64,000 bases of DNA from a virus. This document shows, piece by piece, positions 15,564 through 42,430 of this stretch. Every line of letters begins with the position of its first letter. The first letter of the stretch is position 1. The notes beneath the pieces are model-generated. The model saw only the letters and a list, made by a program, of their open reading frames with translations. It made no database searches and was not told the DNA's origin. The DNA is taken from positions 13,590 to 77,589 of IMG/VR virus record IMGVR_UViG_3300036828_000771. The stretch is one strand, 5' to 3'. The translations under genes and the position numbers were made by a program.

Positions 15564-16822
15564 GGAATCCTCGCTTGGTGGTCGAGCTTGACCACGTAAT
15601 CCTTTTTCACCCATCCTAAGCTGGCATCGCCTCGGACGTGCTCGTGGATGAACCGGCCGTAGGCCATGCACTTGCCGCACAGGCGATAGCCGTCGACATG
15701 GTCGTACTCCCAGTCGTGCTGCTCGGCCGCGCAGTGCTGCTCGTGCAGGTACGTGCGCCAGTGGCCACGCACCTCGTGCGCCCGGTGCTTGCGCTCGACG
15801 TTACTGAGGTAGCGTTCGAGGTACGGGATCGGCCTCGTCTTCGGCAGCCGCAGCGTGCACTTGTGGTAGTCGACGAAGTTGTGGCGCGTCGCACCGGCAC
15901 GCATCGAGTGACTGGGCTGGATGTGATCGGTGCGCACCGGCACTTCGTTCAGCATCCCGAGCGCCGCGACCAGCCAGCGAATCTGGCCCATGAACTCGCG
16001 GGCCTCGATGACCGTCGCCCGATTCAGATTGTCTTCCTGTCCGCGATGGACGAACACGTCGAAGAACGAGGCATGCAATCGGCTGAGGCCCAGAACACCA
16101 TGGCGTTCCAGAAAGACCGGCGTCTTCAGTCCTCGCGGATCGAGAAGCTCGCTGACGCTGCCAGCCCTCTTGCGTGTCTCCAGCTTGCCGTCAGCGTAGC
16201 CCCACAGGGCCGCCGTCCGCAGGAAGGCAGGAAGGCTGGGAGAGAATGGCGTACAACCGAAATGGTCGGTGGTGAAGTCGCGCTCGACCGTCGAGAAGAA
16301 GTAGGACACCTGATGCGGCAGCACTCCGTTCGCGATCTCGCTGACCAGCGAGCACACCGCGTCGGTGTCGTTGATCCGCTGGATCAGCATCCCGAGTCTC
16401 GGCGGAACATCGCTCAGGTCTGATGGGGTGCCCGCGATCTCATTCGCGACGCGCACCTTCACCCGGCAATCGAACTCGATCCACGTCGTCTCGTAGGGCA
16501 GCGTGGCGTACTGCAATCGCGCGAGCGTCTTCTCCGCCGTGGCAGCGGCCATGCGGGTGACGTACTCGGTGAACTCGTTGTCGAGCACGAAGCGGTGGGC
16601 CTTGCGCATGTCGATGCGGTACTGCAACAGCGCGGCCTCGGCCTGCCTCTTGTATCGCCCGGGCATCCCGATGAAGGGAGTAGGCAGCTTGTAGGTGGCG
16701 GCCATGAACTGGTCGGCCAGCGTCGGCTCCTCCTTCCCCATGTTGCCGAGGATGTGCGAAGCAACCGCCAAGGCTGGCGATTGCTTGAACAGTTCTTTAT
16801 CGATTGGCAGAGGCGGCTTCAT
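15560..16822 (-). CDS. Conserved phage protein with C-terminal HxVRGHWR motif
   Basis: RAHEVRGHWR...CGKC...HEHVRGD; probable start ATG 16822 just downstream of a promoter. Confidence 0.7.
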   Translation of the reverse strand: MKPPLPIDKELFKQSPALAVASHILGNMGKEEPTLADQFMAATYKLPTPFIGMPGRYKRQAEAALLQYRIDMRKAHRFVLDNEFTEYVTRMAAATAEKTLARLQYATLPYETTWIEFDCRVKVRVANEIAGTPSDLSDVPPRLGMLIQRINDTDAVCSLVSEIANGVLPHQVSYFFSTVERDFTTDHFGCTPFSPSLPAFLRTAALWGYADGKLETRKRAGSVSELLDPRGLKTPVFLERHGVLGLSRLHASFFDVFVHRGQEDNLNRATVIEAREFMGQIRWLVAALGMLNEVPVRTDHIQPSHSMRAGATRHNFVDYHKCTLRLPKTRPIPYLERYLSNVERKHRAHEVRGHWRTYLHEQHCAAEQHDWEYDHVDGYRLCGKCMAYGRFIHEHVRGDASLGWVKKDYVVKLDHQARIP

Positions 16823-16823
16823 G

Positions 16824-16860
16824 ATGTCCCTAATATAGGGCACCCTATATTAGTTCTCAA
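16824..16860 (-). promoter_or_regulatory. Leftward sigma70-type promoter overlapped by operator/inverted repeat
   Basis: Minus strand TTGAGA-N17-TATATT; perfect 11-bp inverted repeat 16830-16853. Confidence 0.6.
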
Positions 16861-17261: not shown

Positions 17262-17586
17262 GGCCGGCTCCACGCGCTCAGGTCGGCCGGCAAGTTGAGC
17301 GAGTCAAACCCCGCAGGCATGCTGCCATGGTAGCTGCTGATAGCAGCCGCCAGCGCCACGACAGCGACAGCGACAGCAAGAAAGGTCAGAAACGCGCGCC
17401 CTTCTACGCGCTTGTTGTAAAACACAGGTCTCTCCAGTTGACAGTTAATGGGCGGAATTGCCCTTCGACTCCGTGCGAGCACCGCACGGTTCAGCGCCTC
17501 GACCGAGCCTTGCCCGAAGTCCGGGTGCGGTTCGGTCGCGCGGTCCTGACGTGCCCGAATCTCGGCCATCACTTCGTCGATCTTTT

Positions 17587-17952
17587 TCACGCAGCGGCCT
17601 GCCAAGCGTCGGCAAGGTTGCTGCTCGATGGCGCGAGAATGTTGTACCAGTCACACTCATAGACACGCTCGCGCTCAGCGTCGGGGTCGACGCCGGGCGG
17701 CATGTAGCCCGGGCGGCCCGTCTCTCTGGCGACCACCAGACAGTTGAGCAGCGGCAGGTCGTTCTGCTGGCAGTATTGCAGGATGCAGCCAAGGATTTCG
17801 TCGAGCACGCCATGGCTGCGGCGGTGGAACATCAACTCGCCCAGTTGGGCGTAGGTGATGGTCTGTCGGTTCATGCCGTGTCCAATGAGGATTTGCCACG
17901 CCTGAACGGCCCGCACGGGCCGCACGCTGCTCGGATTGAAACGTACACTCAT
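17587..17952 (-). CDS. Winged-helix-like hypothetical protein
   Basis: ITYAQLGELM...LGCILQYC...LPLLNCLVV..TGRPG pattern. Confidence 0.55.
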   Translation of the reverse strand: MSVRFNPSSVRPVRAVQAWQILIGHGMNRQTITYAQLGELMFHRRSHGVLDEILGCILQYCQQNDLPLLNCLVVARETGRPGYMPPGVDPDAERERVYECDWYNILAPSSSNLADAWQAAA

Positions 17953-17985
17953 CTCGACACTCCCTTTCTATCGGGCGGAATTGCC

Positions 17986-18040
17986 CTTCGACTCCTAAAG
18001 CCCGCGCCAGCTTTTCAGGGCTGGGCGGGCTGGTAGGGCG
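17986..18040 (-). repeat. Bulged leader hairpin, copy 1
   Basis: AGCCCGC-g-CCAGC-loop-GCTGG-GCGGGCT preceded by CTTCGACTCC on the + strand. Confidence 0.6.
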
Positions 18041-18216
18041 GGGGAACCAACTTGCCTTCAATGCAGACGGTCTGGCAGAAGACCGCCGCGTGACTCGGTT
18101 TGACCATGGCCTCGTCCAACGACTAGGGGAGGGAAACGAGGCTTAGGCAGCAGTGGCTTGGTGTTCCGGGCTGCCCCCGGGCAACCCTGAAAGCGTCACG
18201 CCCCTCCTGAAGAAGT

Positions 18217-18240
18217 GACCCGGGGCCGTAACCCCGGGCC
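18217..18240 (-). terminator. GC-rich hairpin, possible weak intrinsic terminator
   Basis: GGCCCGGGG-loop-CCCCGGGTC followed by ACTTCTT, just after the DUF932 stop. Confidence 0.45.
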
Positions 18241-18246
18241 GTCGCG

Positions 18247-19335
18247 TTACTGGGCCAGTTCGAGGAGCTTGCCGCCCTCCTTCTCCAGTTCGACGCGGGC
18301 GTCCTGATGGACGATGCCGCGCGCCTTGGCCGTCACTGCCGTGGCCGCATCGAACAGGGTCTCAATCGGGCGACCCTCTTCGAGCTTGTGGACCTCCTGA
18401 AGCTGGGCAGCCATGCCGCGCGAGAAGCGCTTGGCCAGCCACTCATCGACGTTGTCGATGCGCTTTTCCTTGGCGGCCTCGATAGCCTTCACGACGTTCG
18501 TCGCCGAGGAGTTCGCGTAGCTCGTCAGAGCCGGGGCCATCTGCTCCAGCCACTTGTCGGGAGCGCTCACCGTGTGGCGGATGGTGATCTGCTTGTACTC
18601 GGCAGCACCCCACACGATGCGGTTCATGCAGACGTAGTCGAACAGGAAGGTCGCCACGCCGAAGGTCTTGTCGCCGACCTCCGAGTTCCACACGAAGAAC
18701 CCGCGAGCCATCGCGCCGGTCTCGCCGTTGCGGCGATTCGGAATCTCGATGCGGTTCTGCTCGTCGGCGAGGAACACGAACATATCGCGGTCGCCGGCAT
18801 AGAGCGTGGTGTTGGACTTGTTGACCGTCACGGCCTTGCCGAACTCGCCCGGCACCTTGAACCGGCCGGTGACGCCATCGCCCACCGCCTGAATCAGGCC
18901 GCGCACGATGCCAGAGTTCCAGATGCGGCCATAGTTCGGGCCGGTGGCGCAGCGCAGGATGTTGCTGCCGTTCTGCTGGAGCAGGACGCCAACGTCTTCC
19001 ACGTCGCGCTTGTACTGGAGTCCGTAGTTGATGCAGTCGGCGGCCAGAGGGGCCGGCAACGTGCGGAGGTAGCCGCCCGGCGACTTCGCGAGGCTCGCGA
19101 GTTGGCCGAAGGCGTGGTTGGTGGGAGCGTAGGCGTGCCCGTTGGGGCCGACTACCATGAGCGCCTTGCTGTCGCTCGGGACAGGCTGCAACTCGATCTT
19201 GCGGCTCGACACCGTCAGGGCGCGAGACTGCTCACGGACCCGGTCGAAATGCTCCTGCATCTCGGGAAGGGACGTAAACCGCTCGTCATCCGGTCGGCTC
19301 GACCACTGGTGGCTGGCTTGCATTAACGTAGACAA
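18247..19335 (-). CDS. DUF932-like phage/plasmid protein
   Basis: QWSSRPDDERF, LYAGDRDMFVFL, RGFFVWNSEVG, DYVCMNRIVWG and IRH motifs. Confidence 0.75.
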   Translation of the reverse strand: MSTLMQASHQWSSRPDDERFTSLPEMQEHFDRVREQSRALTVSSRKIELQPVPSDSKALMVVGPNGHAYAPTNHAFGQLASLAKSPGGYLRTLPAPLAADCINYGLQYKRDVEDVGVLLQQNGSNILRCATGPNYGRIWNSGIVRGLIQAVGDGVTGRFKVPGEFGKAVTVNKSNTTLYAGDRDMFVFLADEQNRIEIPNRRNGETGAMARGFFVWNSEVGDKTFGVATFLFDYVCMNRIVWGAAEYKQITIRHTVSAPDKWLEQMAPALTSYANSSATNVVKAIEAAKEKRIDNVDEWLAKRFSRGMAAQLQEVHKLEEGRPIETLFDAATAVTAKARGIVHQDARVELEKEGGKLLELAQ

Positions 19336-19372
19336 CTGATCTTCTCCTTGGTGGGCGGAAATGCCCGTTTCG

Positions 19373-19425
19373 ATGTCCTCTATTTAGGGTGTCCACGTCC
19401 TGATTGCAAGCCCTAATTTTAGGGC
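19373..19425 (-). promoter_or_regulatory. Leftward promoter with two operators
   Basis: Minus strand TTGCAA-N17-TAAATA; palindromes at 19375-19390 and 19410-19425. Confidence 0.7.
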
Positions 19426-19440
19426 CGGTTTTACGGGGTT

Positions 19441-19860
19441 TCACTCGCCTCGCAGGTCGACCGACGCGGGTTCCTGTTGCGGCTCCTCGTCGTCGAGCGC
19501 CGACTGGAACGACTGGCCGATGTATTCCTTGATGAAGTTGCGGTCGCGCCCGGAGACCGAAAGATGGAAGCAAAACGCCAGACTGGGCAGCACCGTCACG
19601 GTGTGCTCGGTCCAGCCGTCGTACATGCCGTTCTCGTCCATGTGATGGAACGAGGTCGTGAAGACGAGCTTGTCCCCATTGGACTTGTCGAGATCGATCT
19701 TGGTGCCGGCGTCGAAGCCTCCGCCGCTCGGCAGGTGATCGCGCACCAGCTTGAGCAGCCGCTCCTCGTGGCGCTCTCGCCATTCCGCCTTGTCGGTATC
19801 GATGCAGGCCTTGCGGGCCATCACCAGACTGGCCAACGCTTGGTAAAGTTTCCTTCTCAT
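19441..19860 (-). CDS. Hypothetical phage protein
   Basis: HLPSGGGFD...FHHMDENGMYDGW. Confidence 0.65.
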   Translation of the reverse strand: MRRKLYQALASLVMARKACIDTDKAEWRERHEERLLKLVRDHLPSGGGFDAGTKIDLDKSNGDKLVFTTSFHHMDENGMYDGWTEHTVTVLPSLAFCFHLSVSGRDRNFIKEYIGQSFQSALDDEEPQQEPASVDLRGE

Positions 19861-20138
19861 GGTGTCGCCTCATCCTCGGCATAGGCCGATTCGATGCGCT
19901 GGCCTGTGTCGGAACAGAACAGCGCCGGGTCCTCCCAGTTGATGTCGACGCCGGCCGGCAGCCAGCCGTCGTTGTCGTGGTCGCGGATCGATTCGAGGAT
20001 CAGCCGGCGGTTCGTCTTCGCTGACTCGAAGCTCAGCGCCTCGCCGTCAGCCATCACGAAGTAGCGCGGGTAGCCACCGGGCCACGCCCATTTGCCGTAG
20101 CGCATGTCGCGCCGGAAGTCGGAGATGGTGTAGGTCAT
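19857..20138 (-). CDS. Hypothetical phage protein
   Basis: WAWPGGYP...DGEALS...INWED...RIESAY; ATGA overlaps on both sides. Confidence 0.65.
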   Translation of the reverse strand: MTYTISDFRRDMRYGKWAWPGGYPRYFVMADGEALSFESAKTNRRLILESIRDHDNDGWLPAGVDINWEDPALFCSDTGQRIESAYAEDEATP

Positions 20139-20419
20139 GCGTCCCTCCGGGCCGTCCGGGCATCGACCTGAGCGCTGATGTTCAGGGCGATAGCCAGAAG
20201 CTCGCTGCGCACTTTCTCCAGCGCGGCGATGCGCGCGGCGTGCTGGGCGAAGGCCGTCGAGGCGGCCTCGCTGCTGATCGGGTAGTAGTCCCGACCGTGG
20301 CAGGTGATGGCCTTCGTGAAGTCGATGGCCGTCTGGACGGCATCCATGGCGAGCATGTATTCGGCCAGCAGTTGCGGACCATGGGTGCCGTTCAGGTTGA
20401 TGCGGGGGAATTGGGTCAT
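20135..20419 (-). CDS. Hypothetical phage protein
   Basis: PRINLNGT...HGRDYYP. Confidence 0.6.
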   Translation of the reverse strand: MTQFPRINLNGTHGPQLLAEYMLAMDAVQTAIDFTKAITCHGRDYYPISSEAASTAFAQHAARIAALEKVRSELLAIALNISAQVDARTARRDA

Positions 20420-20422
20420 GGC

Positions 20423-21046
20423 TTAGACCTCGCCCGGATCGGCGTTGATCGCTTCGTCGCGCGCGTCGGAGAGCTTCGACTCGTACTCTTCGTCGGCTTC
20501 GCGCTGGCGCTCGGCGCAGTCGCTCTGGTAGTCCTCCCACAGGAGGTACGCCCATTCGATCAGGTCGCCCAGTTCGGCCGGCTGCGGCGTCGCATCGTTG
20601 TCGAGGAACTCCTCAAACGCCGGATGCTCCGCTTCCTCGCGCGTGACTTCATCGAGGTTCTCGATGTCGCTCGCCCATGATTCGCAGTTGTCGATGCGCT
20701 CCTGCAACATCTCGCCGGTCGCGCCCTGCTGGAGTCCTTCCGGCATATTGTCCAGCGACGACTGGCACTCCTCGCCAAGCTCGCGGATGCGGCCGGCGAT
20801 GTCCTGAAGCGAGTCGCTCAAGGTTTCGTCGAGCGCCAGTTCGGCGATCTCCTCTTGGAAGCCGCGCCACTGCGACTTGAAGTTTGAACGCGTCAATTGG
20901 CTGGGCTTGGGGTACGTCTTGCTGACGACCTTGGTCCCCGGGCCAGTCTGATTCTTGAACGTCCACCAGAAATAGCTGTCGCCCGGCACGACGCCGATGC
21001 TCGGTATGGCCTTGCGGGCCTTCTCGACTTTGTTGACTCTCGGCAT
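20423..21046 (-). CDS. Early protein with basic N-terminus and very acidic helical C-terminus
   Basis: First gene after a regulated promoter; RBS AGGA; SLDNMPEGLQ motif. Confidence 0.65.
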   Translation of the reverse strand: MPRVNKVEKARKAIPSIGVVPGDSYFWWTFKNQTGPGTKVVSKTYPKPSQLTRSNFKSQWRGFQEEIAELALDETLSDSLQDIAGRIRELGEECQSSLDNMPEGLQQGATGEMLQERIDNCESWASDIENLDEVTREEAEHPAFEEFLDNDATPQPAELGDLIEWAYLLWEDYQSDCAERQREADEEYESKLSDARDEAINADPGEV

Positions 21047-21070
21047 TGATGAAAATTCCTGTTTCCTTTG

Positions 21071-21113
21071 CTGCCCTAGATGTAGGACATGCAATGTCCT
21101 AAATCAAGCCCTG
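21071..21113 (-). promoter_or_regulatory. Leftward promoter with tandem operators over -10 and -35
   Basis: Minus strand TTGATT-N17-TACATC; palindromes at 21073-21088 and 21096-21111. Confidence 0.7.
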
Positions 21114-21262
21114 CAACCGTTCTAGGGTGCCGAGGTAGTTAGCGGGCCTGAAGCCGCCGCGATCAATCCACACCGCGAGATCGAGCAAGCCTAGCGTCGC
21201 TTCCTCGAAGTCGCGGTCGGAGATCGCTCGCTCGATGCGCTCCATGCAGGCGTTGGGGTCCA

Positions 21263-21877
21263 TTACTTCCACCTCTTGAGCCAGCTAGGGCCGAACTGGT
21301 TGCGGACTTGCCGCAGCAGGTGGCCGTTCGGCTCGCGCGCGTCGGCACCGTTCATCCAGCAGGTGATCAGGTGCTCTTTCCAGCCGCCACTTTTGGTCGC
21401 GTATTTGACGGCGAAGGCCTGCACGGCTTGAAGCTGCTCCGGGGTCGGGGTCTGGCTCAGGTCGGTGTCGTTGGCGTTCACGATCATCGCCATGGAGTAG
21501 TTGCCGAACGGCTTGAACTGCTCGACGCCCTCGTAGACGTACAGCCGGCGCTTGACGATCTTGCCATCCACCTCGGTGGTGATGGTCTTGTCCGTGCGGG
21601 CCTTGATCGGGAAGTGCGCGAAAAGCTGACTGTCGCCAGTGAAGCTGTCGCTGTAGGTCTTGCCGACCTCGAAGCGTTTGACGGTCGGCGGGTTCACCAT
21701 TTCTTCCGGCGCATTGATGCCGTAGCCGCCGCGATGCACCTTGTCCGGGTCGACCTTCTCGCGCTCGGCGATCCAGTCCTCGGCTTGCTTCACGGTGTCG
21801 ACGCGGGCGACGACCACCAGCCGGTCGCCCGGTTTGGTCGCGCTCTCTTCGTCGGTGATAGTCACTTGCTTGCGCAT
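21263..21877 (-). CDS. Hypothetical composite protein
   Basis: RBS GAAAGGA; three apparent small domains. Confidence 0.6.
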   Translation of the reverse strand: MRKQVTITDEESATKPGDRLVVVARVDTVKQAEDWIAEREKVDPDKVHRGGYGINAPEEMVNPPTVKRFEVGKTYSDSFTGDSQLFAHFPIKARTDKTITTEVDGKIVKRRLYVYEGVEQFKPFGNYSMAMIVNANDTDLSQTPTPEQLQAVQAFAVKYATKSGGWKEHLITCWMNGADAREPNGHLLRQVRNQFGPSWLKRWK

Positions 21878-21884
21878 GTCATTG

Positions 21885-21940
21885 TCCTTTCGACGCCTCG
21901 ACCCCGCACCGGGTTCTCAGGCCCGGGCGGGGTTGGCTTC
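21885..21940 (-). repeat. Bulged leader hairpin, copy 2
   Basis: GACCCCGC-a-CCGGG-loop-CCCGG-GCGGGGTT adjoining the RBS. Confidence 0.75.
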
Positions 21941-22012
21941 AGATGTGGATCACTGCGTCGAGCAGGATCATCAGCAGGGTGAGGACGAGCGCGGCCATCA
22001 GCATGGGACTCC

Positions 22013-22216
22013 TTACTGCCGGATCGTCTCGACGAAGGTGGCGATACGGTCGCCCAGCACTTCGTCGGTGACGCCCTCGGCGATGGCCTTGTGGCCCTCG
22101 CGGAAGACCTTGCCGATGTCCATCACACTGATCTGGACACCGCAGCAGCGGGTTCTGTAGGCCTCCTCGATTCGCAGGTCGTCGCGCTTGGCCTGAGCCT
22201 TGGTCGGTTTACGCAT
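22013..22216 (-). CDS. Hypothetical protein
   Basis: RBS GAGGAG; coupled to the upstream ORF. Confidence 0.6.
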   Translation of the reverse strand: MRKPTKAQAKRDDLRIEEAYRTRCCGVQISVMDIGKVFREGHKAIAEGVTDEVLGDRIATFVETIRQ

Positions 22217-22415
22217 TGGCCGACTCCTCGTTGAACTTGCGACCCGTGCCTTCCCAGTAGGTCGCCGTCACTTGGAAACCCTCGCTCTCGGGGAACCGAT
22301 GGCGGATCGAGGCGAGCACGTCCAAGACGTGAGCGCGGTCGGTGCCGCTGCGGGGCGCGGTAGCGAAAAAGTGTCGGCCGTTCAGGCTGACGTTGATCTC
22401 GACGTGGCTTTGCAT
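22209..22415 (-). CDS. Hypothetical protein
   Basis: EINVSLNGRHFFAT...RFPESEGF; RBS GAAAGGA. Confidence 0.65.
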   Translation of the reverse strand: MQSHVEINVSLNGRHFFATAPRSGTDRAHVLDVLASIRHRFPESEGFQVTATYWEGTGRKFNEESANA

Positions 22416-22422
22416 GGTGTAG

Positions 22423-22472
22423 TCCTTTCGACTCCTCGACCCCGCTCACGGGTCCTAGCCGTGGCGGGGTTG
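22423..22472 (-). repeat. Bulged leader hairpin, copy 3
   Basis: GACCCCGC-t-CACGG-loop-CCGTG-GCGGGGTT adjoining the RBS. Confidence 0.75.
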
Positions 22473-22478
22473 TTGGGG

Positions 22479-22676
22479 TTACTGCGCGTCGACCTGAGCC
22501 TGAAGCTCCTCGACCTTGGCCTCGGCTTCCTGCCAGAGCATCACGATGCTCGACAGGCTGGGCCGGTGGCCGGTCTCGGTCTTGTACCGGGCGATGAAGT
22601 CGAACGCGGCTTGCGCCTTGCTGACCTGCGAGACCACGTTGAAGGCCTCGACCGCTGCCACGATTTTGTCGTTCAC
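22479..22676 (-). CDS. Hypothetical protein
   Basis: RBS GAAAGGA then GTG 22676; start uncertain. Confidence 0.5.
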   Translation of the reverse strand: MNDKIVAAVEAFNVVSQVSKAQAAFDFIARYKTETGHRPSLSSIVMLWQEAEAKVEELQAQVDAQ

Positions 22677-22706
22677 TTGATTGACCATCCTTTCGTTGTT
22701 GCTACT

Positions 22707-22756
22707 GACTCCTTGACCCCGCTCAGCGGTGTCATGCGCTGGCGGGGTTGAGGGTC
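22707..22756 (-). repeat. Bulged leader hairpin, copy 4
   Basis: GACCCCGC-t-CAGCG-loop-CGCTG-GCGGGGTT. Confidence 0.75.
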
Positions 22757-22905
22757 GGACAGGAGAGGCTGGAGCAGGCGGGGCTTTTCGCGTTTCCAAA
22801 TGTTAAGGCGAAGTAGCCGGTCGGCTTTTCTCCTGATCTCTCACTGGGAGGGACCGTGCCGGGGTCGCCGGCCGCTTCGTCCCTCCCCACTAAGATGGGG
22901 ATGGC

Positions 22906-22972
22906 ATGCCCTAAATCAAGGGCATGTGGATAACCTTTCCTGCCGTTTGCACATGCCCTGCATTTAGGGCAC
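22906..22972. promoter_or_regulatory. Two operator palindromes flanking a DnaA-box match
   Basis: GCCCTAAATCAAGGGC 22908-22923, GCCCTGCATTTAGGGC 22955-22970, TGTGGATAA 22925-22933. Confidence 0.6.
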
Positions 22973-23489
22973 GGGCCAGCCCGCGCTCCCGGGCACGTAG
23001 CTTGCGCAGCGCCGTCGCTGCGCGCTTGGCCTTGGTCTCCCAGCGCTTGATGGATGCCCGGGTGGCGTCGAGCTTGGCCGAGCGGGCCTCGACCGGGCTG
23101 GGCTTGGGCGGCGCAGCCTTGACCGGCTTGGGCAGGTGCCAGCCCTTGGCCAGCACATGCTGAATCATCTCCAGTTCGAGGGCGGCGTGCCGGGCGCTGT
23201 GCGCCTTGAACCACCTCTTGCCGTGCCGCCGCTCGAACACCCAATGCGAGGCGTCGTGCACCATGCGCGGCAGACCGTTGCCTCGGGCGTACTGGGTGTC
23301 GGTGCCCTTCGGCGCAGCCCACGCGCGGTTCACGCGGTGACTCCACCATGGCCCTCGCAGGTGCTTGCCGCCGAATTTCTTCAGCAGCTTGTCGAAGATC
23401 GGCTTGGCCTCGGCGGCGGTGACGGGAGGCAACTTGACGTTGCCCCACGCATCGTTCACGTCGCTGTAGGAGGTGAGCGATTCCATCAC
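22911..23489 (-). CDS. Hypothetical basic protein (HDxxH, SprT-like?)
   Basis: MVHDASHW...AHSARH; C-terminal coiled coil. Confidence 0.55.
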   Translation of the reverse strand: MMESLTSYSDVNDAWGNVKLPPVTAAEAKPIFDKLLKKFGGKHLRGPWWSHRVNRAWAAPKGTDTQYARGNGLPRMVHDASHWVFERRHGKRWFKAHSARHAALELEMIQHVLAKGWHLPKPVKAAPPKPSPVEARSAKLDATRASIKRWETKAKRAATALRKLRARERGLARALNAGHVQTAGKVIHMPLI

Positions 23490-23818: not shown

Positions 23819-23836
23819 CTTAGACTCCGTTTGTTG

Positions 23837-23911
23837 ATGTCCACATTATAGGGCATGTCAACAACAAAGTCCATCCGCTGCATTTTGTGGTGTGTCCTAA
23901 TTTAAGGGCAC
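23837..23911 (-). promoter_or_regulatory. Leftward promoter with two operators
   Basis: Minus strand TGGACT-N17-TATAAT; palindromes at 23839-23854 and 23894-23909. Confidence 0.7.
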
Positions 23912-24516: not shown

Positions 24517-24709
24517 TGCTTGGGCTCGAACTGTGACGGTGCCGGTGCATTCGCTCGTCTTTCCCCGGCCGCCATCCGCAGATATCTCAGGTATCTCAGT
24601 ACCTGCTCGACGGTGATTCCGACCTCAAGGCAGAGCGCCAATTCCTCGGCGATCTCGTCCGCCAGCTTTTCCGGCTCTGTGATAGGCTCGCTCATTGGAG
24701 GACTCCATC

Positions 24710-25156
24710 ATGCCAACCGAAATGCTCAGTCCCCATTTCGCCCTCAGCGAGTTCACGATCAGCGAGACCGCAGGCCGTCACGGTCTCGACAATACGCCGC
24801 CGCCCGAGATCGTCGAGGAACTGCGCAAGATGGCGGCGCTGATGGAGAGGGTGCGCACCTTGCTCGGCGACAAGCCGATCCAGATCACCAGCGGCTACCG
24901 TGCGCCTGCGGTCAACGCTGCGGTCGGCTCCAGTGCGTTCTCGCACCACTGCAAGGGACAGGCCGTCGATTTCATCTGCCCGGGATTCGGGACGCCGCGT
25001 GAGATCGCCGAGGCGTTGCTGCCGCACCTGCACACCCTCGAAATCGATCAACTGATCTGGGAGTTCGGATCGTGGGTCCATCTCAGCCACCATGACACGC
25101 CCCGCAAGATGGCGCTGACGATTGATCATGGTGGCACCCGGTCAGGGATCGGCTGA
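24710..25156 (+). CDS. Endolysin, peptidase M15 (Zn D-Ala-D-Ala/L-Ala-D-Glu peptidase fold)
   Basis: LSPHFALSEF, ITSGYR..VN.AVG..SHH..G.AVD and WVHLS motifs; RBS GGAGGA. Confidence 0.85.
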   Translation: MPTEMLSPHFALSEFTISETAGRHGLDNTPPPEIVEELRKMAALMERVRTLLGDKPIQITSGYRAPAVNAAVGSSAFSHHCKGQAVDFICPGFGTPREIAEALLPHLHTLEIDQLIWEFGSWVHLSHHDTPRKMALTIDHGGTRSGIG

Positions 25157-30838: not shown

Positions 30839-30940
30839 CTCATCCTCCAGAAAAAATTGCCGGTCGCGAGTAGCTTCCCACGCCAACTCCACCGGCCCTC
30901 GACTCCACGGCACACCCATATCGTGGCGTCGAGCAGTCCA

Positions 30941-41914: not shown

Positions 41915-42090
41915 AACCTTAACAGTCTTGATCCTGCTCCCAAAAGGCGCAGGGTCAGCGCTGCCGGGGACAAGAGGGCGACGGTCCTTTTCCCCAACCC
42001 ACCAGCCAGCCGACAGCGCTTCGGACCCCGACGCTGTTGGGTGCTGTTGGTGGAAGGATACCCGGCGGCGTCTCTACTGTTGAGGGGTTC
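41915..42090 (+). ncRNA. Putative structured RNA/leader upstream of proQ
   Basis: Four nested or adjacent stems identified by eye (see findings). Confidence 0.5.
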
Positions 42091-42091
42091 G

Positions 42092-42430
42092 ATGTCCGAG
42101 TTTCATCGCGCATTGGAGCTTTTAGCGGACCTCGGACACCCGTTGTTCATGCGCATGAACGCCGAACACCGCGCCGTGCCGATGGCCATCGGCATCGCCA
42201 AGACCGTCCTCGACAACATCGACACGCTGCGCCGCCCGGCCGTCAAGCGCTCGATCAGATCGCTGACCAACTCCTACCAGTATCTCGATGCGCTCAAGGC
42301 CGAGGGAGCCAAGCGCCACGATCTCGCCGGCAATCCGGTCGGGCCGGTCTCGTCTGACCATCAGACTGCCGCGCGCGAGCGGCTCAAGATCATGCACCGG
42401 AGGAAGCACCCACCCCAACCCAAGGGATAG
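42092..42430 (+). CDS. ProQ/FinO-domain RNA chaperone
   Basis: HPLF...PMAIGI...LTNSYQYL...GAKRHDLAGNPVGPVS..HQ.AA signature. Confidence 0.85.
   Translation: MSEFHRALELLADLGHPLFMRMNAEHRAVPMAIGIAKTVLDNIDTLRRPAVKRSIRSLTNSYQYLDALKAEGAKRHDLAGNPVGPVSSDHQTAARERLKIMHRRKHPPQPKG

Follow-up and report, generated by a model that had tools for sequence, protein, structure and literature searches.

A strand-specific, covarying bulged hairpin between the non-structural genes of uncultured soil phages

What is the nature of a bulged hairpin that recurs four times between the small non-structural genes of one phage, and what might read it? The question is raised by a window of 64,000 nt, that is, bases 13590–77589 of the 77,589-bp IMG/VR record IMGVR_UViG_3300036828_000771 (rated complete by CheckV); all positions below are those of this window. 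A gene map based on GC content at third codon positions places the structural genes (terminase, portal, tail) on the plus strand and the non-structural genes in a minus-strand block of ∼11.3 to 36.3 kb, which encodes an AAA_24 ATPase, a PDDEXK nuclease, a NADAR protein, a DUF932 protein and many small ORFans. All four hairpins lie within the minus-strand block and are read as the reverse complement of the window. Conserved early-gene hairpins are known in a few model phages, namely the RNase III sites of T7, lambda nut, the promoter-early stem-loop (PeSL) of T4 and the start-associated SAS/ESAS motifs of mycobacteriophages. An original prediction, made by a model from the sequence letters and a list of open reading frames (ORFs), had proposed four such hairpins here and named RNase III processing, binding of a phage protein such as ProQ, or recombination as their possible roles. 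We found that the hairpins belong to a genuine family of RNA motifs, with no counterpart in Rfam 15 or in the deposited phage records searched, and that the element is a strand-specific, structurally selected RNA module between cistrons of non-structural (probably early) operons.

The same four copies were returned by a repeat search, in which they form one 44-nt family, by a stem-anchored pattern search and by a covariance model, R1, which was built on an alignment (A2) of 21 copies and run without filters. They lie where they had been predicted, all on the minus (coding) strand, at 17999–18031 (copy 1), 21901–21933 (copy 2), 22439–22470 (copy 3) and 22716–22748 (copy 4). Their R1 scores were 55.6–69.6 bits, and nothing else in the window scored better than the reverse complements of these four (≤17.7 bits), which sets the number of copies at exactly four; the far lower scores of the reverse complements therefore also make the element strongly strand-specific. 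No fifth match to the stem-anchored pattern was present anywhere in the whole 77.6-kb genome. Folded alone, each copy forms the architecture that had been claimed, in which an outer stem of 7 bp and an inner stem of 5 bp are set apart by a single unpaired base on the 3′ side and capped by a loop of 7–8 nt, at −21.6 to −24.8 kcal/mol, and with ∼100-nt flanks the z-scores against shuffles were −2.4 to −3.4. The four inner stems and a compensatory change in the outer stem of copy 1 also read as predicted. At 3–4 nt after each hairpin stands GGAGUC or GGCGUC followed by a purine run; thus the predicted GG(A/C)GUC motif is found 3′ of every copy, but the ribosome-binding site (RBS) said to follow it, GAAAGGA, is placed 7–8 nt before an AUG only in copies 2 and 3, and the RBS is farther downstream in copies 1 and 4.

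Copy 4 is the first in transcript order (55.6 bits, −22.1 kcal/mol) and lies ∼160 nt downstream of paired operator palindromes and a promoter-like region at 22907–22971. It is preceded by a leader that by base composition is C-rich and G-poor (22749–22775), and comparable leaders stand before copy 3 (22471–22478), copy 2 (21934–21939) and copy 1 (18032–18050). Its outer stem is ACCCCGC/GCGGGGU, its inner stem CAGCG/CGCUG, its bulge A and its loop CAUGACAC; the tail CAAGGAGUC (22702–22715, with GGAGUC at 22707–22712) is followed by AGUAG, then by the RBS GAAAGGA and a start at AUG 22691 or GUG 22679. The UAA of the upstream gene ends 8 nt 5′ of copy 3 (57.2 bits, −21.6 kcal/mol), which has inner stem CACGG/CCGUG, bulge A and the 7-nt loop CUAGGAC; the same inner stem occurs in the relative G004, there with loop UUAGGAC. 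In copy 2 (69.6 bits, −24.8 kcal/mol) the inner stem is CCGGG/CCCGG, the bulge U and the loop CCUGAGAA, and the UGA of a 21-codon hydrophobic ORF lies 5 nt 5′ of the hairpin. In these two copies the purine run of the tail is itself the RBS of the next gene: the tail of copy 3, CGAGGAGUCGAAAG (22425–22438), serves a 68-aa gene starting at 22415, and that of copy 2, CGAGGCGUCGAAAG (21887–21900), a 204-aa gene starting at 21877. Copy 1 (67.3 bits, −23.3 kcal/mol) has inner stem CCAGC/GCUGG, bulge C, loop CCUGAAAA and the outer stem AGCCCGC/GCGGGCU, in which one C-G pair is replaced by G-C; G004 has a copy with the same swap in a similar place, after a ∼400-aa gene. Its tail region (17969–17998) reads UUAGGAGUCGAAGG and then a mini-hairpin, GGGC-AAUUCC-GCCC, and is followed by the RBS GAAAGGGAG and an AUG at 17952. 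As a separate observation, GGAGUCGAAGG together with this mini-hairpin occurs twice on the minus strand, at 17969–17995 after copy 1 and at 17446–17475 behind a different 5-bp hairpin, and a related GGGC-AUUUCC-GCCC at 19349–19370 (minus) precedes the RBS of the DUF932 gene.

Relatives were gathered from IMG/VR by two pattern scans, one anchored on stem and tail and the other on stem and loop. With the covariance model, at least 46 copies were found in ∼20 uncultured soil phage contigs, at 1–4 per genome: 2–4 copies in each of five 57–79-kb phage records (G001–G005) and single copies in several further records. A metagenome scan with a loop-anchored pattern, in which pairing of the inner stem was not required, added at least ∼20 copies, among the matches listed, to those from the IMG/VR records; the number of inner pairs in the 104 distinct matches listed was bimodal, 79 having 0–4 pairs as by chance and 25 having all five, where ∼1 was expected. 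In the model-based alignment (46 hits, 45 distinct), 99.3% of stem cells are paired and 7 of the 12 pairs have changed on both sides. The observed covariation score was reached by none of 500 shuffles, and pairing fell to 27–45% in slid registers. Moreover, mutual information computed without a structure ranked six predicted pairs at the top (12–25, 11–26, 14–23, 10–27, 4–34 and 13–24), which make up the whole inner stem and one pair of the outer stem. Strong coupling was otherwise confined to neighbouring columns of the tail, and there was no mutual information among loop, bulge and tail columns such as a loop–tail pseudoknot might leave. The two outermost pairs, which lie outside every search pattern, covary as well (A-U 18, G-U 13, G-C 12; and C-G 36, G-C 8, U-A 1). 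All 46 model hits are on one strand, their reverse complements scoring at least 45 bits lower. Hence the covariation that was to be checked with a covariance model is strong in the 45 distinct copies. The further claim that structure rather than sequence is conserved needs qualifying, since the five outer pairs CCCGC/GCGGG, the loop U with its two purines and the tail are conserved in sequence too. For the five central outer pairs, the two search patterns are partly responsible for the lack of variation; hits found by the model only keep these pairs, bar one U-G.

The family appears specific to these phages in the collections searched. No R1 match of ≥30 bits was found in 75 NADAR-bearing loci of unrelated phages (∼1.3 Mb); one further NADAR locus (L076) belongs to a close relative, record G015, and has a diverged 27-bit copy. 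A loop-anchored scan of 596 Gb of bacterial genomes gave no true members (79 matches, six with at least four inner pairs and none with the tail), and a host repeat of the REP/BIME type was dismissed on this absence from bacterial chromosomes. Blastn against 50,697 deposited phage records returned chance matches only; against Rfam 15 the window had no match at the gathering score, and in 17800–23100 none fell on the hairpins at E-values up to 5. The hairpin family is thus a candidate new Rfam family.

On the coding strand the module reads, in order, stop codon, C-rich and G-poor leader, hairpin, tail and next RBS. Every copy in six full genomes and six single-copy records is intercistronic, between a stop and the next start, and co-oriented with the flanking genes; over 46 copies the median distance from stop to hairpin was 18.5 nt and that from hairpin to start ∼34 nt. 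The 35 nt upstream of 44 members contain 43% C and 22% G, with CCCC in 29 of the 44 against 3 of 42 control stretches and a copy of the 5′-arm core (CCCGC or CCGCC) in 21 against 5. The bulge is fixed in position and free in base (C 23, A 15, U 7, G 1). The loop always has U followed by GA or AG, and its recurrent subtypes, CCUGARAA (most copies), AUUGAGCC, YUAGGAC and CRUGACAM, are each kept across phages; a GNRA tetraloop with a closing U-A pair fits most loops, and in a diverged copy (L079, 9243–9284) a plain GCAA tetraloop replaces the 8-nt loop and the bulge is missing while the tail is unchanged. Every loop holds UGA or UAG, which was considered as a back-up or real stop codon, but the frames relative to the upstream gene are evenly spread over three, and this loop motif is therefore read instead as U and two purines. 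Two mimics were likewise rejected: a tRNA minihelix (7 + 5 bp), for which the bulge is on the wrong strand and a CCA-like tail is missing, and a CRISPR type I-E repeat with the same CCCCGC/GCGGGG stem, from which the flanks differ and of which no arrays appeared in the bacterial scan.

In the main class the tail is Y-R-R-G-G-(C/A)-G-U-C followed by six or seven purines. In class II copies (L157, L161, L163, L302, L336, L391 and L395) the tail is GGUGCC and forms the 5′ strand of a second hairpin, whose stem varies yet pairs (GCCAGC/GCUGGC, GCCAG/CUGGC, GCCGGGC/GCCCGGC), giving a two-hairpin element before the RBS. Two copies depart from the usual surroundings. The copy at 1501–1547 of L162 (record G012), at 53.6 bits and with the same loop and bulge, lies inside a ∼550-nt non-coding stretch of a lower-GC contig (∼50% GC), and looks like a terminator because UUUUCCCAUU, a U-tract, comes after it. 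In the relative G002, one copy is followed not by an RBS but by a −35/−10 promoter and an operator palindrome, so that the hairpin is not tied to the next RBS. A U-tract is absent in the other 45 of the 46 copies, and hence the family members are not intrinsic terminators; a consensus terminator scan flagged none of the four in the window. As side observations on the tail, the window has 8 instances of the GGMGUC-purine motif where 2.3 are expected, and one of them, in a gap at 30896–30906, is the 3′ strand of another hairpin.

The genes around the hairpins are shuffled among relatives. In the phage of the window (G000) and in G002, G004 and G005, a conserved pair of 110-aa and 192-aa genes comes before the start of the hairpin cluster, and most of the small genes that lie between the hairpins or beyond them are unrelated; one 70-aa family is followed by a hairpin in three of three phages, each time with a different loop subtype. 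The suggestion that the hairpins are recombination anchors fits these data, as the cluster keeps its place while the genes between and after the hairpins differ. A BLASTP profile of this phage's proteins against eleven other carriers gave no protein common to all, and the proteins encoded just upstream of hairpin clusters showed no common regulator family in PHROGs. With the distant carriers G009 and G013 this phage has little in common besides tail-fibre and tail proteins and an M15-type lysin (41–46% identity), which are host-range functions. Thus the distribution of carriers suggests that they have a host group in common and that the reader is host-encoded, or else that co-infecting phages exchange the module.

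We favour, at a probability of roughly 0.4, a cistron-punctuation module of early messages that would be read by a host factor and would double as a linker for accessory-gene exchange. The module would be transcribed inside polycistronic early messages and act there as punctuation between cistrons. Its very stable hairpin may be a barrier to 3′-to-5′ decay, or the mark of a processed end for the upstream message, or both, and its fixed tail would present the next ribosome-binding region unstructured and purine-rich. That the stem core, the position of the bulge, the loop U and the tail are all conserved suggests that a trans-acting factor recognises the element. This reader is most likely a host factor, e.g. 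a nuclease, the ribosome or RNA polymerase, because no phage protein tracks the element and because phages sharing only tail-fibre and lysin genes carry the hairpin. The conserved 45–60-nt linker between small variable genes is probably also a site of accessory-gene exchange between phages. Known decay-barrier hairpins, such as that of the Rhodobacter puf operon and the C(UUCG)G hairpins of T4, are likewise very stable, tetraloop-type hairpins just after a stop within an operon, but they are without a conserved bulge, stem core or tail and form no sequence family across unrelated genomes. Several points weigh against the cistron-punctuation module. A plain decay barrier needs no fixed bulge position, stem core or tail, so part of the design is left unexplained. 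Classical RNase E sites are AU-rich and this tail is not, and a classical RNase III site would need a longer helix. As said above, the search patterns account for some of the constancy of the stem core. The lysin, examined as a clue to the host, has no close relative in the bacterial genomes searched. More tentatively, the module may be a horizontally mobile RNA signal, complete in itself and independent of phage proteins, by which a host machine is recruited or modified (RNA polymerase or Rho in a put/nut-like manner, a nuclease or the ribosome), and it may be one family of a wider, undescribed class of early-operon cistron separators with conserved loops and covarying stems.

Among other explanations, a signal for transcription elongation is fairly unlikely, with several points in its favour. 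The nascent hairpin and tail would act on RNA polymerase, either by nut/put-like antitermination or as a pause or attenuator that grades expression along the operon, and by analogy the C-rich leader might be a Rho-loading tract. In lambda, boxB lies between rutA and rutB in the cro-nutR-tR1 region, and there too C-rich sequence is found beside a hairpin; the loop core U-GARA-A resembles the boxB loops of lambda and P22, these also being hairpins with a GNRA-like loop closed by U-A in early leader or intercistronic RNA. Moreover, the leader is strongly C-rich and G-poor, copy 4 lies ∼160 nt downstream of a promoter/operator region, the second hairpin of class II directly follows the first as in put RNAs, and a host-read signal independent of phage proteins would explain sharing among unrelated phages. 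However, boxA (core CUCUUA or GCUCUU) is absent within 50 nt of all 46 copies, and no N-like protein was identified. The 7 + 5 bp stem with its bulge and 7–8-nt loop differs from the 5-bp stem and GNRA-like pentaloop of boxB, only the U-GARA-A core being similar, and the conserved single-stranded motif here is 3′ of the hairpin. Nut is one site downstream of a promoter, whereas here one operon has three copies in a stretch of 850 nt, more than a processive modification would call for; one G002 copy is upstream of a promoter, and a U-tract is present in only 1 of 46 copies. A second explanation, which we hold to be rather doubtful, is an operator at which a trans-acting RNA-binding protein sets downstream translation, i.e. 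a tag shared by a subset of early genes, comparable with SAS/ESAS or the targets of T4 RegA. Here the hairpin with an asymmetric motif that adjoins or overlaps the RBS, confined to non-structural genes and to one orientation, is as expected, and so are the fixed bulge position with its variable base and the conserved loop U, which are typical of protein-binding hairpins, and the conservation of the loop subtypes CCUGARAA, AUUGAGCC and YUAGGAC across phages. On the other hand, BLASTP gave no protein that accompanies the element, the spacing of tail and start codon ranges from ∼20 to >70 nt and a promoter can intervene, and the distance from stop to hairpin is tighter than that from hairpin to start. 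SAS/ESAS of cluster K mycobacteriophages is the closest described analogue in layout, with no sequence relationship. It has been described in like terms, as an asymmetric start-associated motif after an inverted repeat, in one orientation and with non-structural genes only (PMC3203893); SAS itself is a 13-nt motif, GGGATAGGAGCCC, 3–8 nt before the start codon, in 11–19 copies per genome (PMC3203893), and the function of SAS/ESAS is still untested (PMC12699233). Both elements have an asymmetric motif containing or adjoining the RBS with an inverted repeat and a short spacer before it, and both occur in several copies, in one orientation, only in the non-structural half of the genome. Unlike SAS, the tail here (YRRGGMGUC and purines) has no similarity to GGGATAGGAGCCC and stands at a variable distance from the start, the hairpin, with 12 bp, a bulge and a fixed geometry, is the shorter one and has clearly undergone compensatory changes, a genome has 1–4 copies rather than 11–19, the element is nearer the upstream stop than the start codon, and it is common to phages with almost no shared genes.

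Three further proposals fare less well. That the hairpins are RNase III sites of the T7 type, with the hairpin as upper stem, the flanks as lower stem and the cut in an internal loop, seems improbable. In T7 sites an internal loop separates an upper from a lower stem, ∼20 bp in total, and the sites are related hairpins repeated between the early genes of one polycistronic message, as the intercistronic copies here, several per genome in an inferred polycistronic early region, would also be; the upper-stem length is constant at 12 bp, minimum free energy folds add 2–6 flank pairs in the four copies, and a few relatives have long lower stems. The original prediction had extended the helix to ∼20 bp. 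But by constrained folding and by duplex energies against swapped, shuffled and coding flanks, the flanks pair no better than swapped partners (P = 0.07–0.24) or shuffled flanks, and coding sequence 120–240 nt upstream pairs as well when taken as partner (P = 0.19). Because pairing of the flanks is no better than in these controls, the ∼20-bp helix is not a supported feature, and with a conserved helix of only 12 bp a T7-type two-turn substrate is not supported either; moreover, the sequence conservation of the loop and the single-stranded tail is not required by RNase III. A DNA-only element, that is, a recombination site or cruciform without RNA function, is still harder to credit and would be very unlikely. 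The shuffling of gene content near the hairpins between relatives would suit it, and in T4-type phages the PeSL cassettes are an example of conserved intergenic stem-loops through which such exchange can take place (PMC2839356). Like PeSL, the present element is a conserved, intergenic, GC-rich stem-loop module flanking small variable genes (ORFans) in a plastic early region, and both are plausible linkers for modular gene exchange; PeSL, however, holds a sigma-70 promoter and its stem-loops were shown to terminate transcription (PMC2839356), whereas the four window copies have no promoter-like site, promoter/operator modules filling other gaps, and no U-tract. Compensatory changes keep the inner stem paired, G-U pairs are tolerated on just one strand (13 of them at the outermost pair), and the one-sided bulge, the strand-specific loop and tail and the strict co-orientation with transcription point to a single-stranded (RNA) fold. 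An attC-like site was rejected, since the window hairpins have no GTTRRRY/RYYYAAC cores. Least probable of all, at a very slight chance, are binding sites of the phage's own ProQ/FinO protein. The phage does encode a ProQ/FinO-domain protein on the plus strand at 42041–42430 (56 bits, above the Pfam cut-off), and FinO-domain proteins bind hairpins with single-stranded tails, but none of the 10 other hairpin-bearing phage records has a ProQ domain, six of them being 97–100% complete, and recognition by ProQ is mainly structural, which leaves the conserved loop unexplained.

The family offers a clean case in which strong covariation goes with an unusual fixed geometry, namely a two-tier stem, a positioned bulge, a U-purine-purine loop and a fixed tail. 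Its presence in phages with nothing but host-range genes otherwise in common speaks for a host factor, and for the module itself being exchanged, and the interest would rise if a host factor or control of elongation were truly involved. At ∼50 nt the module is a compact, mutable test object for the separation and tuning of cistrons in early operons and for the swapping of accessory genes.

Several other features lie near the hairpins. The 21-codon ORF just 5′ of copy 2 (21940–22005, minus), MLMAALVLTLLMILLDAVIHI, is very hydrophobic, has the Shine-Dalgarno sequence AAGGAGUC and is a candidate small membrane peptide. A putative 30-codon ORF with high GC3 (MVKPSHAAVF..., 18015–18107, minus) ends at the UGA in the loop of copy 1. 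Directly 3′ of the DUF932 gene, a GC-rich 7-bp hairpin (CCCGGGG..CCCCGGG) with a pyrimidine-rich tail at 18215–18246 (minus) may be a weak terminator, and a structured gap of ∼200 nt separates it from copy 1. The M15-type peptidase, a probable lysin (24695–25156), is a plus-strand gene inside the minus-strand block. Paired palindromes of the type TGCCCTAAAT..ATTTAGGGCA, at 22907–22971, 21068–21116, 19375–19425, 16809–16860 and 23822–23873, overlap sigma-70-like promoters, namely TGGACT-17-TATAAT at 23873, TTGAGA-17-TATATT at 16860 and GTGAAA-17-TAAAAT at 19444. An intergenic gap of the early block has either such a promoter/operator module or a hairpin module, and the same type of palindrome is found 3′ of a hairpin in the relative G002.

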